64,000 bases of DNA from an uncultured Planctomycetaceae bacterium. GTDB lineage: Bacteria > Planctomycetota > Planctomycetia > Isosphaerales > Isosphaeraceae. Each line of letters starts with the position of its first letter. Position 1 is the stretch's first letter. A model generated the notes under the pieces. That model saw only the letters and a list, made by a program, of their open reading frames with translations. It was not told the DNA's origin and searched no databases. Shown one piece after another: positions 16,661 to 64,000 of this stretch. Location: contig CAWIAD010000002.1 in assembly GCA_963833985.1 (NCBI GenBank), positions 2,560,001 through 2,624,000 of the forward strand. Reading direction: 5' to 3'. The position numbers and the translations under genes are program-made.

Positions 16661-18154
16661 GTACGTGTTTAGCGGCATAGCCTTTGCTGGCCTGAACTGA
16701 CCAGGTGAGATGGTCAGTCCAGCAGGGTGGGCCATGAGATCCTCCGATCGGGCCGAGCTCGAACGCTTGCGTGAAGAAAACCGGACTCTGCGCGCTCGAG
16801 TCGCCGTCTTGGAGCAGACGGTCCAGGAACTCACGGACCAGAATCGACAGCTCCAGGAGAAGCTCGACGAGCAGACGCAGGCCGCGGCTCGACAGGCCGC
16901 CCCGTTCCGGCGGCGCGAGTCCAGGAAGGTCCCCGACGGTTCCAAGAAGCGGCCCGGTCGACCGCGCGGCCACACCGGGATCCACCGGAAGGTCCCCGAG
17001 CATGTCGATGAACATGCCCACGTACCCTTGACCGGCTGCCCACACTGCGGCGGGCCGGTGACCGCAGTGGAGCCGATCGAGCAGTTCATCGAAGAAATCC
17101 CACCGGTCCGGCCCCACGTTCTCCACTTGATCACGTACCGGGGCTGCTGCGCCCACTGCGGCGAGGTGCACAGCTCTCATCCCATGCAGACCTCGACAGC
17201 TACCGGCGCCGCCAAGGTTCAGCTTGGCCCCCGGGCCCATGCCTTGGCGGCCGCATTAAACAAGCAGTTCGGCTTGACCATGCGTAAGACCTGCCGCGTG
17301 CTACAGCTTGTCGCGGGTTTGGTGCTCAGCCCTGGTGGGCTGGCCCAAGCCGTGCAGCGCACCGCCGCGAAGGTCCAGCCGGCCTTTGACAGTTTGGTTA
17401 CCGAAGTCCGTGGCGCGGCCGCAGTGTTCGTCGATGAGACGAGCTGGTATGTCGGGACCCCGGGGTACTGGCTCTGGACGTTCACGACTGCCGACACCAC
17501 GGTCTACCACGTGGACAAAAGCCGCGGCCGACAGGTGGTGCTGGACACTCTGGGCGAGCACTTCGCCGGCATCCTGGTCAGCGACTGCCTGGCCAGCTAC
17601 GAGAACGTGCCGTACCGGACGCACAAGTGCATCGGCCACCACCTGAAGAAGATCGCCGAAGCGCGCGACCGACCGGACACAAAAGATCCAAGCTACCTCA
17701 ACCAGTGGAAGCTACTCTTCACGATGGTCAACGCACTCTGGAAACACCGTGCGGATCTGGGCGAGGAAGAGTTTGCCCGGCAACGTGGCCACCTGGAGGG
17801 GTGGCTGGATCGGTTGCTCAAGGAGCCGCGGACCCAGCCAGGGGACAAGGCAATCCAGCAACGCATCGGCAAGCGTCGCGGGGTGGTCCTGGGGTGCCTG
17901 GACGACCCCGCTGCGGAGCCGACGAACAACCGTGCGGAGCGGTCGCTGCGCGACCCTGGCGTGATTGCGCGGAAGGTGTCGTGCGGGAACAAGACTGAGG
18001 CAGGCAAGGTCGCGTGGGAGCGGCTGACCAGCTTGGCGATGACTTGCCAGCAACGCTCCCAGGATTTCGTCTCCTGGCTGGCCTCGTGCTTGCCCCTCGA
18101 CGCCCTGGTAACCACTGTCCCCACCACTCCTAACCAAGCCCGCTAAACACGTAC
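16661..18154 (+). mobile_element. Complete IS66-family insertion sequence (single-ORF, ISBst12-like)
   Basis: Perfect 15-bp terminal IRs GTACGTGTTTAGCGG (16661-16675 and 18140-18154); 8-bp TSD CCACGCTC (16653-16660 and 18155-18162). Confidence 0.93.
16734..18146 (+). CDS. IS66-family transposase
   Basis: N-terminal coiled coil, PGRPRGH, CPHCG zinc finger, VDETSW, LVSD and TNNRAERSLR. Confidence 0.93.
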   Translation: MRSSDRAELERLREENRTLRARVAVLEQTVQELTDQNRQLQEKLDEQTQAAARQAAPFRRRESRKVPDGSKKRPGRPRGHTGIHRKVPEHVDEHAHVPLTGCPHCGGPVTAVEPIEQFIEEIPPVRPHVLHLITYRGCCAHCGEVHSSHPMQTSTATGAAKVQLGPRAHALAAALNKQFGLTMRKTCRVLQLVAGLVLSPGGLAQAVQRTAAKVQPAFDSLVTEVRGAAAVFVDETSWYVGTPGYWLWTFTTADTTVYHVDKSRGRQVVLDTLGEHFAGILVSDCLASYENVPYRTHKCIGHHLKKIAEARDRPDTKDPSYLNQWKLLFTMVNALWKHRADLGEEEFARQRGHLEGWLDRLLKEPRTQPGDKAIQQRIGKRRGVVLGCLDDPAAEPTNNRAERSLRDPGVIARKVSCGNKTEAGKVAWERLTSLAMTCQQRSQDFVSWLASCLPLDALVTTVPTTPNQAR

Positions 18155-18436
18155 CCACGCTCTGCGTGGGAACACTGGTCAGGACGCTCTGCGTCCCACG
18201 AATCTCCCAGCCTCGGCACGGGCCCGATCGACGCAGAGCGTCGAGGACGGCATTCCCACGCGGAGCGTGGGAACGAGAGACAAACCTCTGCACACACTCA
18301 ACTTACGGCTATTCCTATGGTATTGCAGTTAGGGCGGACTTCCGGACGCGAACGATTCCTCACCGCGCGCGGCAGGTCATCCCGGCTGCGCCGGCGGTCC
18401 GGTCATGCTTGAAAGCGAGGCATTCCGCGAGCGCGG

Positions 18437-24781: not shown

Positions 24782-25109
24782 GCCATTGACCGCCAGGCCG
24801 TTTGGTTTTCGGGCAGGGAACACAGAGCACCGAACTCGAAGGGGCAACTCGAAGCAACTCGAAGAACTGGCAACTCGAAGGCAACTCGAAGGGGCCGCCC
24901 ACAGTTCACAACTCGAAAGCAACACGAAGGCAACACGAAGGCGGCAACACGAAGGAACACGAAGGGGCCACCCACAGTACATCAAACGGCGAGCAGGGGC
25001 GCGAAGGGGCCACCCACGGAGGCGAGGAAGCACGAAGGGGCCACCCACCAAGCACGAAGGGGCCACGAAGGGGCCACCCACAGTTCAAGGCTCGAAGCAG
25101 GGAAGGCAC

Positions 25110-25420
25110 TAAGAGGGAGTTCGGAAACTTGGGTGGTCTGGACAGATTTTCTGAATTGAGCAGAATCTTCTCAGGGGAAGGGTAGTCATCGAACAAGGGC
25201 GGAGCCCGATCATGGAGCACGAAGGGGCCACCCACAGTCCATCCAACAGTGTGGGTGGCCCGACTGCACGGGTTTGTGGGTGGCCCGACTGCACGGGTTT
25301 GTGGGTGGCCCCAAGCATGGCCCGGGTTTCAGGGGCTCTTGAACGAGCAGATTGCGGATGAAGTCGGGCTCAACCGCCAGCAGGTCGGCGTGTGGCGGAA
25401 GCGGTGGCGAGATGCCGGAG
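25110..25420 (+). pseudogene. IS630-like remnant broken by motif clusters
   Basis: 25327-25417 encodes FQGLLNEQIADEVGLNRQQVGVWRKRWRDA, a transposase-type HTH. 25110-25214 is an AT-richer segment that begins TAAGAG and ends in an ATG, and may be the left end. Confidence 0.5.
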
Positions 25421-25711
25421 TCACGAAAGTCACGGGGGAACACGAAGGGAACACAAAGGGGCCACCCACAATTCAAGAGGCACGAAGGGGCCACCCACAG
25501 TGAAGGCGGCGTGGGGCCGTCCGTCGGAGTTCGGTGGCGGAGGTGGCGCCTGGAGGCACGAAGGAGGCACGAAGGGGCCACCCACAATTCAGAGGAGGCA
25601 CGAAGGGGCCACCCACAATTCAGAGGCACGAAGCACGAAGGGGAAGCACGAAGGGGCCGAAGCACGAAGGGGCCACCCACAATTCAAGAGGCACGAAGGG
25701 AGAGGCACGAA

Positions 25712-25958
25712 GGGGCCACCCACAGTGAGGGCGGCGTGGGGCCGTCCGTCGGAGTTCGGTGGCGGAGGTGGCGCCTGGCTTGTCGTCGTCGAGCCGCTCG
25801 GTGCTGAGCGCAGGTCGGGGAAAAAGGCAGGCCGCACGGTGCCTCACCGGATCAGAGGTTCACCAGACCGGCATCAGGTAGGCTCAGACGAGGATCCGAC
25901 GGAGCCATACTTCCACCAGCATGCCTGGCCGTAGATGCCCGGGTCCGTGGGTGGCCCC
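25712..25958. mobile_element. ~250-bp non-coding element with 12-bp terminal inverted repeats (copy 1)
   Basis: Bounded by GGGGCCACCCAC ... GTGGGTGGCCCC. Homologous to 27529-27778, and its first ~65 bp are duplicated at 25487-25553. Confidence 0.7.
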
Positions 25959-26048
25959 AATCATCGGTGGGTGGCCCCAATCATCGGGCTCCAAGGATCG
26001 TTTGTCGGGCTGACGCCCGAGGTTGGCAGTCACGAAGGGGCCACACAC

Positions 26049-27528
26049 GAATGCCGCGAAGTTAATTTTAACTAATTGTGCCATTTGATCTTGCGCCATG
26101 GGTGAGGCTCCGGGCATCCTGTGGGAAGTACCAGGACCCACAGTTGCTGGAGGGAGCCCCACCCATGCCGCCTCGCATCATCCCTATTCTCGATCGACTG
26201 CGCCAAGATATCGCCGCGGGATTGTCCCGGGAGACGATCGAAGAAGCCTGCCGCCAGGCGAAACACCGCTGGCGGAATCGCGTTCTCGACCCCGCGACGA
26301 CCATTTATCTGTTCCTTCTCCAGGTCCTTCATGGCAACACGGCCTGTCGCCACGTGGTGCACTTCGGCGCTTGGACCTTCACCGACAGCGCCTACTGCAT
26401 GGCGCGAAAGCGGCTTCCGCTGGCCGTCTTCGACTGGCTCGTGGAGCGGACCGCTGCCGCCGTGCGGACTGCTTCGGATGGCGCGCGGTGGCTCGGGCAC
26501 CGAATCTGGGTCGTCGACAGCTCCAGCTTCTCCATGCCGGACCAACCAGAACTGCAACGTCACTTCGGCCAACCCAGCGGTCAACGCAAGGGCTGTGGCT
26601 TCCCGGTGGCGAAATGGCTGGCCCTCTTCGACGTCACCACCGGCATGCTTCTGCGTTCGAGGACGGCCCCTTTGCGGACCCACGAGATGTCCCAGGTTGG
26701 CCCGATCTCCGACGGCCTGGAGCCGGGAGACATCGTGCTCGGTGACCGCGGATTTTGCTCGTATGCTCATCTGGCGATATTACTGCAACGCGGTCTGCAT
26801 GCGGTTTTCCGCGTGCACCAGCAGCAGATCGTCGATTTCACGCCGGGTCGTCCGATGGCCAGGAGGAAGGGTCCGTACCCCAGGCCGCAGGGTCTGCCGA
26901 GTTCGCGGTGGGTGTTGGCGCAGGGAACCGCAGATCAGATTGTCACATGGTTTAAATCGAAATCCCATCCGAAGTGGATGTCGACGGATGAGTTCGAGGT
27001 GCTGCCCTCCGAGATCACCGTGCGCGAGCTGAGGTACCGGGTCGAGACACCCGGGTATCGGGTGCGCGAAATCACGCTGGTCACGACTCTGTTAGACGCA
27101 TCGACCTACCCGGCGACAGAGCTGGCCGAACTCTACTACAAGAGGTGGAGAGTCGAACTCAATTTTCGTCATATAAAGATTAGCATGAAGATGGATGTTC
27201 TGCGTTGCGAGACAGTCGAAGGGGTTCTCAAAGAGCTGGCGATTTTCAGCCTGGCGTATAACCTGGTAAGATCGGTCATGCTGGAGTCGGCACGCATGCG
27301 CGGCGTTGATCCGGATCGGATCGGCTTGATCGACGCGGTGCGCTGGCTGATCGGGTCCGAAGGGGGTTCTGAGCCCGCGCGGATCGTCATCAACCCATTG
27401 CGCCGTGGACGCGTCGAGCCCCGAGTCGTAAAGCGACGACCAAAACAATACATGCGGATGACTAGGCCCAGATCCGAACTCCGCAAACAGTTGCCAATGA
27501 AGCACTTCTGACTAACTTTGTGGCATTC
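26049..27528 (+). mobile_element. Complete IS4-family insertion sequence
   Basis: IRL GAATGCCGCGAAGTTA and IRR (reverse complement) GAATGCCACAAAGTTA match at 14/16; 11-bp TSD GGGCCACACAC (26038-26048 and 27529-27539). Confidence 0.92.
26165..27511 (+). CDS. IS4-family transposase
   Basis: SAYCMARKRL, VVDSS, LGDRGF, YYKRWRVELNFRHIK (YREK signature) and EPRVVKRRPK. Confidence 0.95.
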   Translation: MPPRIIPILDRLRQDIAAGLSRETIEEACRQAKHRWRNRVLDPATTIYLFLLQVLHGNTACRHVVHFGAWTFTDSAYCMARKRLPLAVFDWLVERTAAAVRTASDGARWLGHRIWVVDSSSFSMPDQPELQRHFGQPSGQRKGCGFPVAKWLALFDVTTGMLLRSRTAPLRTHEMSQVGPISDGLEPGDIVLGDRGFCSYAHLAILLQRGLHAVFRVHQQQIVDFTPGRPMARRKGPYPRPQGLPSSRWVLAQGTADQIVTWFKSKSHPKWMSTDEFEVLPSEITVRELRYRVETPGYRVREITLVTTLLDASTYPATELAELYYKRWRVELNFRHIKISMKMDVLRCETVEGVLKELAIFSLAYNLVRSVMLESARMRGVDPDRIGLIDAVRWLIGSEGGSEPARIVINPLRRGRVEPRVVKRRPKQYMRMTRPRSELRKQLPMKHF

Positions 27529-27778
27529 GGGCCACACACAGTTCAGGGCGGCGTGAGAGCCGTCCGGTGGCGGACGTGAGCTGGGCTCGTTGTCGTCGAG
27601 CCGCTCGGTGCTGAGCGCAGGTCGGGGAGAAGAAGGCTGGCCCCACGGTGCCCCACCGGATCAGCGGAGACCAGACCGGGATCAGACAGGGGTCAGACGA
27701 GGATTGGACGAGGATCAGCTGGGACCATACTTCCACCAGCGTGGCTGGCGGTAGATGCCTGGGTCCGTGGGTGGGCCC
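27529..27778. mobile_element. ~250-bp non-coding element (copy 2, diverged; left end hit by IS4)
   Basis: Shares GTCGTCGAGCCGCTCGGTGCTGAGCGCAGGTCGGGGA, CACCGGATCAG, CCATACTTCCACCAGC and GTAGATGCC-GGGTCCGTGGGTGG with copy 1, in the same order. Confidence 0.7.
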
Positions 27779-27872
27779 GATTATCCCTCGATTATCCCAG
27801 GTAGAAGAGCATGGACGGATCGTCGAGCCGCTCGGCCAGGCTCGGACATGAAACGATCCTCGACGAGACCCC

Positions 27873-27901
27873 TTGCAAGCCGGGTCTGGATATGCCAGAA
27901 T
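27873..27901 (+). promoter_or_regulatory. Possible promoter of the TA operon (nearly leaderless transcript)
   Basis: TTGCAA, 17 bp, then CAGAAT preceded by TGn, ending 9 bp before ATG 27911; no SD. Confidence 0.35.
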
Positions 27902-27910
27902 TAGCCTAGA

Positions 27911-28315
27911 ATGGGCACCGGCGAATCCGAGGAATCAAAGCCGCTCTTCTGGATGGGCTCGAGCCGGAGTGACTTGCGAGAGTTCCCGGAGGAGGTCAGG
28001 CATTCGATGGGCTTTGCCCTCTGGCAGGCCCAGCTTGGCCGCAAGCACCGGGACGCGAAGGTCTTGAAGGGCTATCGCGGGGCGGGGGTCATCGAAGTGG
28101 TCGAGGACCACGATGGGAACACGTATCGAGCCGTCTACACGGTGAAGTTCGCCGCTGCGGTCTACGTGCTGCACGCCTTCCAGAAGAAGTCGAAGAAGGG
28201 CATCAAGACGCCCGTGGCCGAGATGAAGCTCATCCGCCAGCGGTTCAAGGCAGCAGAGGAACACCATGAGGAAAGAAGAGCGGAAGCAGAAAAGCGTGGA
28301 GCCGGTCCCCATTGA
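27911..28315 (+). CDS. Type II TA toxin, RelE/HigB-like (Gp49/DUF891 type)
   Basis: KPLFWMGSS..DLREFP, GFALWQAQLG, TYRAVYTVKF and VYVLHAFQKKSKKGIKTP. Confidence 0.9.
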   Translation: MGTGESEESKPLFWMGSSRSDLREFPEEVRHSMGFALWQAQLGRKHRDAKVLKGYRGAGVIEVVEDHDGNTYRAVYTVKFAAAVYVLHAFQKKSKKGIKTPVAEMKLIRQRFKAAEEHHEERRAEAEKRGAGPH

Positions 28316-28613
28316 GCCGTCGAGCGGGAACGTGTTCGCCGACCTCGGGCTCGACAATCCGCAAGAGCTGCTCGCCAAGGCCGAGCTGGTGCAGCGCATC
28401 GCCGAAATCATCGCCGAGCGGAAACTCACGCAAGTTCGAGCCGCGAAGCTCCTGGGAGTCGACCAACCGAAGGTGTCGGCGCTCCTGCGGGGCAAGCTCG
28501 ATGGGTTCTCCACCGACCGTCTGTTCCGGTTCTTGAACGCCCTGGGCCGTGATGTCGAGATCGTGATCCGGCCGGCGAAACCCTCACAGGAAGCGGAAAC
28601 CCGCGTGGTCTGA
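28266..28613 (+). CDS. XRE-family HTH antitoxin (HigA-like)
   Basis: SSGNVFADLG, LTQVRAAKLLGVDQPKVSAL and FSTDRLFRFL; overlaps the toxin, toxin-first order. Confidence 0.9.
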   Translation: MRKEERKQKSVEPVPIEPSSGNVFADLGLDNPQELLAKAELVQRIAEIIAERKLTQVRAAKLLGVDQPKVSALLRGKLDGFSTDRLFRFLNALGRDVEIVIRPAKPSQEAETRVV

Positions 28614-28803
28614 CCCTGGAGCCTGGCCCGAAGCAAGCCGTTTGAGGACGGGTCGCATCCCACGATCCCATCTGCCGGCATGCCTCACGACCTCCCCACA
28701 GGCAGCCCGAAGGGGCCACCCACAGTTGAGGGCGCGTGCGGCAATCCATGCCGGTGGCGACGATACAGATTCCAGAGGGTCAGGGCCTGCGGCGGGCGCG
28801 GAC

Positions 28804-63269: not shown

Positions 63270-63972
63270 GAATCGGTGCGTCGTCGCTGCGCTGGACGCA
63301 CCCTGCGCAACAGCTTCCGTCCGGGGCCTTGTGAACATCGCGGCGCTCGCTTCCACGTGGTGTCCGCGAGGTATGGCCACGTGCGTGAGCACGTGGTTTT
63401 CACGGGCGCAGCCTCCAACCTCGGGCGTGAGCCCGACCAGTGAGGAAGCCCGGTTCGCAGATTGGTGCATCGTCGCTGCGCTCGGCACACCCGACGCACC
63501 TGGAGCCCGGGCGCATGGCCAGGTGCGCCAGCGCCATGGACTCTGCGGCGCATGGCCACGAGCGTGAGCACGTGGTTTTCACGGGCGCCGCCTCCAACCT
63601 CGGGCGTGAGCCCGACCAGCCCTTGAACCGGGTCGCCCTCACGGGCGAGGTTGGGGGCTGCGCCCGTCCGAACCACGCCCTCACGGGCGTGGTCGCGGCA
63701 ATGCCACGGGCGTGGTCACGGCACCTCCCGGCTGGGGTGAATCCGTTCCAGACAGCAGCGTCGTCTGGCACCGGTGACCACGGTCGTCAAGGCCGTGGTC
63801 CGGACGGGCGCAGCCTTCACCCTCGGGCGTGAGCCCGACCTGCATCGCGCCGCATCGGACCGATCGCCGGGCCCCCGGTCCGCACGTCCCGCCGCCTGGC
63901 CCGTCTGGCCACGAGCGTGAGCACGTGGTTTTCACGGGCGCAGCCTCCAACCCCGGGCGTGAGCCCGACCTG
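63270..63972. repeat. Cluster of ~62-bp REP/BIME-like repeats
   Basis: GGCCACGAGCGTGAGCACGTGGTTTTCACGGGCGCAGCCTCCAACCTCGGGCGTGAGCCCGACC at ~63376, ~63554 and ~63907; a diverged copy at ~63776 and an inverted copy at ~63634-63694; internal hairpin TCGGGC-GTGA-GCCCGA. Confidence 0.85.
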
Positions 63973-64000
63973 CACATCGGCGCACCACGCTCATCCCCCG

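Follow-up and report, generated by a model that had tools for sequence, protein, structure and literature searches.

Between the genes leuD and cysH of the uncultured Planctomycetaceae bacterium studied here lies an island of 3.9 kb that holds pieces of mobile DNA and a toxin-antitoxin (TA) pair, and the question raised by this locus is what kind of process assembles such an island. It belongs to a window of 64 kb, by which we mean the whole stretch of DNA that was analyzed (G000:C2:2560001-2624000, where G000 is the genome under study and other G numbers stand for other genomes). A reading of this stretch from sequence only had proposed that a single motif partitions the island and may act as a recombination or capture site of unknown kind. 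We find that the island is a row of miniature elements lying in the same direction and sharing one end motif, which is assigned below to the terminal inverted repeats (TIRs) of a family of Y1 transposases. The array of non-autonomous TIR elements was probably built by a Y1 enzyme that nicks 7-12 nt outside the motifs and re-joins the ends.

The motif, GGGGCCACCCAC, occurs 20 times in the window when at most one mismatch is allowed, every copy lying within 24891-28723, compared with a mean of 1.24 and a maximum of 5 in a shuffle control (n = 100). The idea of a partition by one motif holds insofar as these copies are confined to the island, but most of them are stacked partial copies of a single end and not distinct sites, with irregular spacings from 7 to ~2,700 nt. 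Genome-wide, 54 exact copies are found in 17 clusters.

The nature of the motif is suggested by the genes that accompany it. An intact gene for a 455-aa Y1 protein (G000:C2:551448-552812) is bracketed by one motif cluster, with forward copies upstream and reverse copies downstream, and the protein carries NHLH, WE, YVDLNP and TS together with long insertions, i.e., the signature given for TnpA-Y1 subclass 2.3 in Table 1 of Quentin et al. (2018, PMC6006769; this and the other publications cited here are represented by excerpts of their text). Outside G000, the motif lies beside the gene in 6 of 7 genomic homologues at 52-71% identity and in none of 7 at 42-48%. Among 80 metagenomic loci collected, 47 that reach a gene end were scored: close homologues with enough upstream DNA have the motif at exactly -131 (11/11), and downstream in 3/5, while distant ones have it upstream in 7/30 and downstream in 10/32, an upstream variant of the motif being present in all nine distant loci inspected. 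Furthermore, five congeners hold 20-121 copies each vs. 1-3 of a reversed control. By this association with a gene clade, the motif is assigned to the terminal inverted repeats of a subclass-2.3 HUH Y1 transposase element of the TIRtron type, and the notion of a site of unknown kind is abandoned.

The apparent target choice of an insertion sequence (IS) of the IS4 family is independent support for this assignment. The intact IS4 of the island, whose transposase scores 203 bits against NCBIfam transpos_IS4_1 (above cut-off), has terminal inverted repeats and an 11-bp target duplication (26038-26048 and 27529-27539), and sits inside the forward motif of one of the miniature elements (unit B). 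All of its 11 genome copies lie in GGG-type TIR motifs in one 11-bp register, eight of the targets in G000 being canonical GGGAC/GGGTC types and one being the motif described here. Related IS4 were found at 28 loci of other genomes, and 16 of the 24 with a readable end have, by eye, GGGAC/GGGTC at the target.

The assignment finds a close counterpart in the TIRtrons and TIRYTs (Di Nocera et al., 2013, PMC3733652), where a Y1 HUH gene is flanked by terminal inverted repeats and not by GTAG repetitive extragenic palindromes (REPs), free TIR units form dimers or clusters, and the motif starts with GGGG. Unlike them, the island motif reads GGGGCCAC and has a C at position 5 where the consensus GGGGWSAS has W; this consensus fits most, not all, of the described TIRs, some being listed outside it. 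One-sided stutters, the cut position, same-direction arrays and passenger TA genes do not appear in the excerpted TIRtron text. With subclass 2.3 the enzyme shares NHxH, WE, YVDLNP and TS, a long protein with insertions and several copies per genome. According to the excerpt of Quentin et al. (PMC6006769), no REP-like flanking sequences were found for that subclass, which is mainly represented in Chromatiales and Alteromonadales, whereas here a conserved end motif, with mini-elements and arrays attached to it, accompanies the gene.

Several observations concern the wider behavior of these Y1 genes and of their hunter. The two Y1 gene copies of G000, the intact one and a frameshifted one (C2:2519136-2520501), have stuttering ends on both sides, and an IS occupies the outer leader of the right end of the intact copy. 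In G004 (L092 8-864 and 2339-3671), very long stutter arrays of ~30 and ~50 copies lie on either side of a Y1 gene. In distant homologues (L131-L171) the left motif immediately precedes a TTGAC hexamer, which lies ~70 nt upstream of the start codon, and the motif may double there as an operator for the transposase gene. IS4 hunts the TIR ends of several Y1 families (L204-L232), and three of its copies in G000 are found between two inverted TIR ends with no duplication, which looks like replacement of the interior or its loss by recombination; repeat replacement of the IS1272 type (PMC5678879) was considered for copies of this sort and is inapplicable to the island copy, which has a duplication. 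As for the structure of the 455-aa protein, the AlphaFold model was unusable (mean predicted local distance difference test score 46.5), and a profile search of solved structures returned nothing meaningful.

How the elements came to be stacked is best seen at their joints. Cargo boundaries had been expected to coincide with the motif, and the dateable joints indeed sit 7-12 nt outside it. A piece from inside an IS630 transposase gene, 97% identical to the internal part of the full gene in G024, matches donors in G024, G007 and G103 over exactly 25324-25415, no donor being found in this genome; its left joint lies 11 nt outside a reverse motif, exact in the three independent donors, and its right joint ~12 nt before the first partial forward end. 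An IS5 end stops 7 nt short of the next forward motif (9 nt at most, given microhomology) and retains its own 3-bp target on the left, which shows that this IS5 inserted at the island and was later trimmed in place. A 23-bp repeat piece, in turn, is joined 10-11 nt before the next forward motif. Among 106 motif-flanking windows, homology breaks within 60 nt in 28 and at -12 to -7 in 12; among 1,500 random windows, a break was found in 17, at those positions in 2.

The other signature consists of two stutter blocks with 29 partial ends in all, each derived from what is here called the 'A' end of the element, which share a 5' start, 8-11 nt before the motif position, and differ at the 3' end, where they stop after 0-12 or more motif bases. 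In the second block, one copy of 78 bp matches the beginning of the complete unit that follows (unit A) at 99% identity. One-sided stutters likewise flank homologous ends in G002, G004 and G011, and the joints with known donors are base-exact, both of which speak against the blocks being an artefact of assembly, an explanation that we hold to be very improbable; small shares of two DNA read runs yielded only scraps from other organisms.

HUH enzymes hold a 5' end as a phosphotyrosine, while the free 3'-OH can either serve as a primer for synthesis or attack the bond to the tyrosine (Corneloup et al., 2021, PMC8266576), and the polarity of the partial ends, with a shared 5' start and a variable 3' end, is that expected from this chemistry. 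The enzyme would nick the GGGG strand 7-12 nt outside the motif, keep the 5' end of the element as a phosphotyrosine and pass it to a 3'-OH, sequence specificity not being required for the latter step. Short displacement synthesis followed by re-joining would leave stutters, i.e., one-sided partial copies with a common start, whereas longer synthesis would produce a neighboring unit in the same direction, and joining to a distant end would delete flanking DNA or splice it in, as proposed for the scraps of IS5 and IS630. Stretches between direct copies would be prone to deletion, segments with an intact TA pair being retained by addiction, and IS4 would have targeted one motif later. The motif-enzyme association, the unit boundaries, the joints, the one-sided partial ends, the co-orientation, the local kinship and the TA excess are observed features of this system, and local re-copying and trimming by a Y1 enzyme, with TA pairs kept by addiction, is our best reading and the probable one. 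The outcome looks like an integron array that has no dedicated integration site.

With REPtrons, REPINs and BIMEs and their TnpA-REP enzyme (Corneloup et al., 2021, PMC8266576) the island would share HUH cleavage outside a short signal, the 5'-phosphotyrosine and strand transfer, together with non-autonomous two-ended units. Unlike them, its ends have no GTAG foot, local hairpin or evident fixed CT cut site, and genes lie between its units. The features of the island are collected in Table 1.

Table 1. Components of the leuD-cysH island (window coordinates; 'A' ends as in the text on stutters)
Feature	Position	Strand	Details
Stutter block 1	24833..25109	+	15 partial 'A' ends
IS5-family left end, 104 bp	25113..25216	+	8 full copies elsewhere
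Minimal unit	25217..25323	+	forward motif 25224-25235; reverse motifs 25251, 25276, 25301
Internal piece of IS630 transposase gene (helix-turn-helix region), 92 bp	25324..25415	+	
Stutter block 2	25416..25705	+	partial 'A' ends; 14 anchors including unit A's own
Unit A, non-autonomous TIR element	25701..25989	+	forward motif 25712; reverse motifs 25947, 25967
Short spacer	25990..26026	+	terminates in 23-bp repeat piece (26004-26026)
Unit B	26027..27798	+	forward motif split by IS4; reverse motif 27767-27778 plus one 11-nt stutter
Intact IS4-family element, 1,480 bp	26049..27528	+	DDE transposase 26165-27511
Host-gene scrap, 50 bp	27796..27845	-	two copies of a host gene match it at 88% identity
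Toxin gene, Pfam Gp49/DUF891	27911..28315	+	first gene of pair
Antitoxin gene, Pfam HTH_37	28266..28613	+	true start may be 28296
End of second TIR family, 70 bp	28627..28697	-	canonical GGGGACA type
Lone A end closing island	28701..28757	+	47 nt before leuD stop codon

The sequence-only reading had named three cargoes, the IS630 piece, the 23-bp repeat piece and the TA pair, and each is real and does lie between a reverse and a forward motif; closure of the island by a motif at 28709 is likewise borne out (28709-28734). Its inventory nevertheless overlooked the intact IS4, which makes up 38% of the island, as well as the IS5 end, the 50-bp scrap and the end of the second TIR family. The latter lies 14 nt from the last forward motif and has about 9 weaker copies elsewhere. 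In the minimal unit, the reverse motifs form a 25-bp tandem followed by an 11-nt outer leader, and the 50-bp scrap derives from a gene that we take to be glycosyltransferase-like. The toxin is presumably of the RelE/HigB type; the 80 bp upstream of its gene are conserved in relatives, a promoter scan before it revealed no strict sigma-70 site, and a PADLOC defense scan gave only one weak helix-turn-helix match.

Other parts of the window contain related material. The segment 17897-18144, presumably an IS66-type fragment, is 84% identical to DNA whose cut, at G000:C2:3039359, lies 9 nt outside an A end, and a 46-bp inverted repeat pair at 18150-18275 represents another REP-like family. The 'REP family' of the 23-bp piece (window 63358-64000; about 10 loci, e.g., G000:C2:802187 and C2:1522266) is a repeat that lies downstream of the genes of a second, multi-copy Y1 family; the upstream end of that family is marked by a motif of its own, AAGGACA[T/G]GCAA, with stutters that are specific to each locus.

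The same slot was compared in relatives, where a check for empty or differently loaded alleles had been suggested. leuD and cysH were located in 40 relatives and 20 stretches from 15 genomes were compared; both genes stand on one stretch and in the same order in 10 genomes, the gap being ~0.1-0.5 kb in six (G002, G005, G008, G009, G010, G020) and filled with 3.9-13 kb of unrelated DNA in four (G003, G007, G012, G024). This TA pair and clusters of this motif are absent from all 20 stretches; hence the slot is a variable one into which the island was inserted, and the TA pair, which could have turned out to be syntenic without motifs, is not so. In G007 the slot (L024 1891-6096) holds outward-facing canonical GGGGACA-type TIRs around a DUF4062 gene, interrupted by a transposase-like open reading frame, and then a UPF0175/DUF3368 pair.

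That the slot varies without this motif in four relatives would suit a passive hot spot, in which mini-elements, IS and TA modules accumulate in a neutral intergenic space, duplications and deletions arise from homologous recombination and polymerase slippage, and the Y1 enzyme delivers single units only. The insertion of IS4 and IS5 by their own enzymes and the perfect tandems seen among several stutters agree with such a scenario. Yet neither slippage nor RecA predicts that unrelated DNA is joined at a constant distance (-7 to -12), or that duplications are restricted to the outer side of the ends and have a common 5' start, and we judge the passive scenario improbable.

The units themselves indicate both mobility and local kinship. 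At least 21 copies in the genome make up the ~157-bp family of units A and B, unit A having a ~105-bp extension and unit B being 78% identical to it over 269 columns. Boundaries fall at about -11 to +146 relative to the motif, and a pair of copies separated by 10 kb shows 98% identity from -11 to +146 between unlike flanks, from which it follows that the unit moves on its own; no target-site duplication was evident in the flanks inspected, where scoring was not systematic. The two ends of unit A fold back on each other (z -2.5), pairing only across ~250 nt. The extended end of this unit was found in none of 120 relatives, five of which gave weak 30-50-bp matches, and a collection scan for its parent returned 4 isolated matches in unrelated taxa that were taken as chance. 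Neighboring units within 20 kb are co-oriented in 13/13 pairs, and for 12 of the 15 units having a neighbor the closest relative is that neighbor. A bias of replication strand was considered as a cause of the co-orientation; unit orientation agrees with the sign of the local GC skew at 6/13 loci, a skew too weak to define replichores.

Arrays of this kind are not restricted to the island. At G000:C2:490540-509112 (L001, L002) a sister family of units forms a larger same-direction array, with PEP-CTERM, leucine-rich repeat, ankyrin, Uma2, PIN and DUF2442 genes between its units. In G011 (L235 2599-5976; L237 424-9524), units of hairpin size (43 bp) with the same motif form same-direction rows that surround pRiA4b-ORF3, aspartyl-protease and PIN genes.

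The genome does contain further same-direction arrays that include TA pairs. Among the 12 segments of DNA between same-direction units less than 3 kb apart, five have a TA pair (Gp49/HTH_37 in the island, Phd/PIN, TacA/GNAT, PemK/MazF and BrnT/HTH), four other genes and three scraps only. With 49 markers from six Pfam families, a TA marker lies within 1 kb of 5/15 unit loci vs. 2/31 IS loci (four of the six IS family labels being presumptive) and 1.7% of random windows of the same size. The expected enrichment of inter-motif segments in TA pairs thus stands by the counts (5/12 segments, 5/15 loci) but is borderline against IS loci. Conversely, only 6 of the 49 markers genome-wide lie near units. 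TA pairs stabilize integron arrays prone to deletion (PMC11551772, excerpt), and enrichment in the island arrays may be explained, as we propose, because the same stabilizing selection would act. At 29 homologous TA loci from 27 other genomes, this motif was near one, and canonical GGGGWSAS near six vs. three in distal windows, which is no clear excess. A dedicated role of the TA pair as a cassette is rejected on these counts.

A broader cassette system driven by the HUH enzyme is another matter. Cuts on the same strand at successive A ends would release a single-stranded circle with a unit and its downstream gene or genes, which would re-insert at another A end; arrays would thus be built and shuffled as in integrons, the unit playing the part of attC. 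The strict co-orientation (13/13) speaks for it, as does the occurrence of an intact TA pair, ~25-260 bp from the unit ends, in 5 of 12 inter-unit segments. Moreover, the BrnT-type pair is flanked by two 98% identical units, a module of a unit plus 170 bp is duplicated within one array, a lone A end terminates two arrays, the G007 slot places outward canonical TIRs around a DUF4062 gene and then a UPF0175/DUF3368 pair, and similar rows exist in G011 (hand-picked clusters). However, no unit-plus-gene module was found at two loci when 400-500 bp of flanks were compared for 25 unit ends, and neighboring units are most closely related to one another, a pattern better matched by in-place copying than by import. 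A single unit is present at 10/15 unit loci, the IS5 scrap with its own target was inserted here and trimmed, and both the 1/29 homologous TA loci with the motif and the 6/49 TA markers near units count against such a system. Cassette traffic through circles is therefore rather unlikely in our estimation.

The layout resembles a small integron array, and for this reason known systems of that type have to be considered, even though membership in a TIRtron-type mini-element array is what the sequence comparisons indicate. Sedentary chromosomal integrons (PMC11551772, excerpt) share same-direction, imperfectly palindromic units that separate accessory genes, and TA pairs that stabilize the array; the island differs from them in having no intI, attI or attC core, arrays of 2-4 units and broken IS scraps as cargo. 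The pdif/dif modules and the IS1202 family (PMC10132070, excerpt) share TA modules between recombination-type sites and an IS hunting the site in a fixed register; here the likely enzyme is of the HUH type and the site is hunted by an IS4, whose target duplication is 11 bp long. A degenerate attC or pdif array, a CRISPR locus or an array of catalogued IS ends would explain why direct repeats separate TA modules, a layout known from superintegrons and from dif modules (PMC11551772, PMC10132070). Nevertheless, a regular expression for the consensus attC core pair gave 0 matches in the units on either strand, the consensus 11-6-11 XerC/XerD site gave 0, and the nearest of 13 tyrosine-recombinase matches in the genome lies ~354 kb from the island. 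The units are therefore unlike attC and pdif in sequence, as first supposed; the uniform repeats and spacers of CRISPR are missing, with no Rfam match and irregular spacing; and the motif tracks a Y1 gene clade. This family of explanations is extremely improbable. In the literature searched, no cassette array driven by Y1 and TIRs is described, although this TIR may be among those given in the supplements of PMC3733652 and PMC6006769; the excerpt of PMC5581495 added nothing on cargo.

Assembly by a Y1 enzyme also has its difficulties, and several facts weigh against it. The link to the enzyme is by association: the island itself has no Y1 gene, and the nearest one of the same clade is 65 kb away and frameshifted. 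The intact 455-aa protein obtains weak scores, both below cut-off (Pfam Y1_Tnp, E 0.0065; NCBIfam REP_Tyr_transpos, E 4e-10), and we know of no biochemistry on Y1 subclass 2.3. No autonomous parent with the interior of unit A was found among the genome relatives and metagenomic loci. The 12 joints at -12 to -7 are not independent, about 7 of them involving foreign DNA, and slippage could lengthen some of the stutters, which form perfect short tandems. Compared with IS loci, the excess of TA pairs is borderline (Fisher p 0.029, and 0.065 without this locus), the homology of the TA pair to relatives ends ~55 nt from the left motif and not at the motif, and its right side carries the end of another TIR family.

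The TIR-associated Y1 transposases are widespread (subclasses 2.1 and 2.3; PMC6006769), and in the literature excerpts examined their substrate, cut site and role are not described. For this group the locus offers details that can be tested: an end signal of 12 bp, a window for the cut that lies 7-12 nt outside this signal, the strand, and a 157-bp minimal substrate, along with a proposed outcome in which ends are locally duplicated and trimmed, passenger DNA is spliced in and TA pairs are retained. If cassettes did travel as cargo circles, the locus would represent a second route to integron-like arrays, a gene-cassette platform based on HUH enzymes in place of a tyrosine recombinase; this would cover subclass 2.3 and related TIR-associated Y1 enzymes, which would reshuffle TA and other accessory genes, and it might explain why hosts keep these enzymes. 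Without cargo circles, assembly by a Y1 enzyme would still explain a common kind of messy intergenic island, and would mean that TA-rich arrays of direct repeats can arise without an integron.

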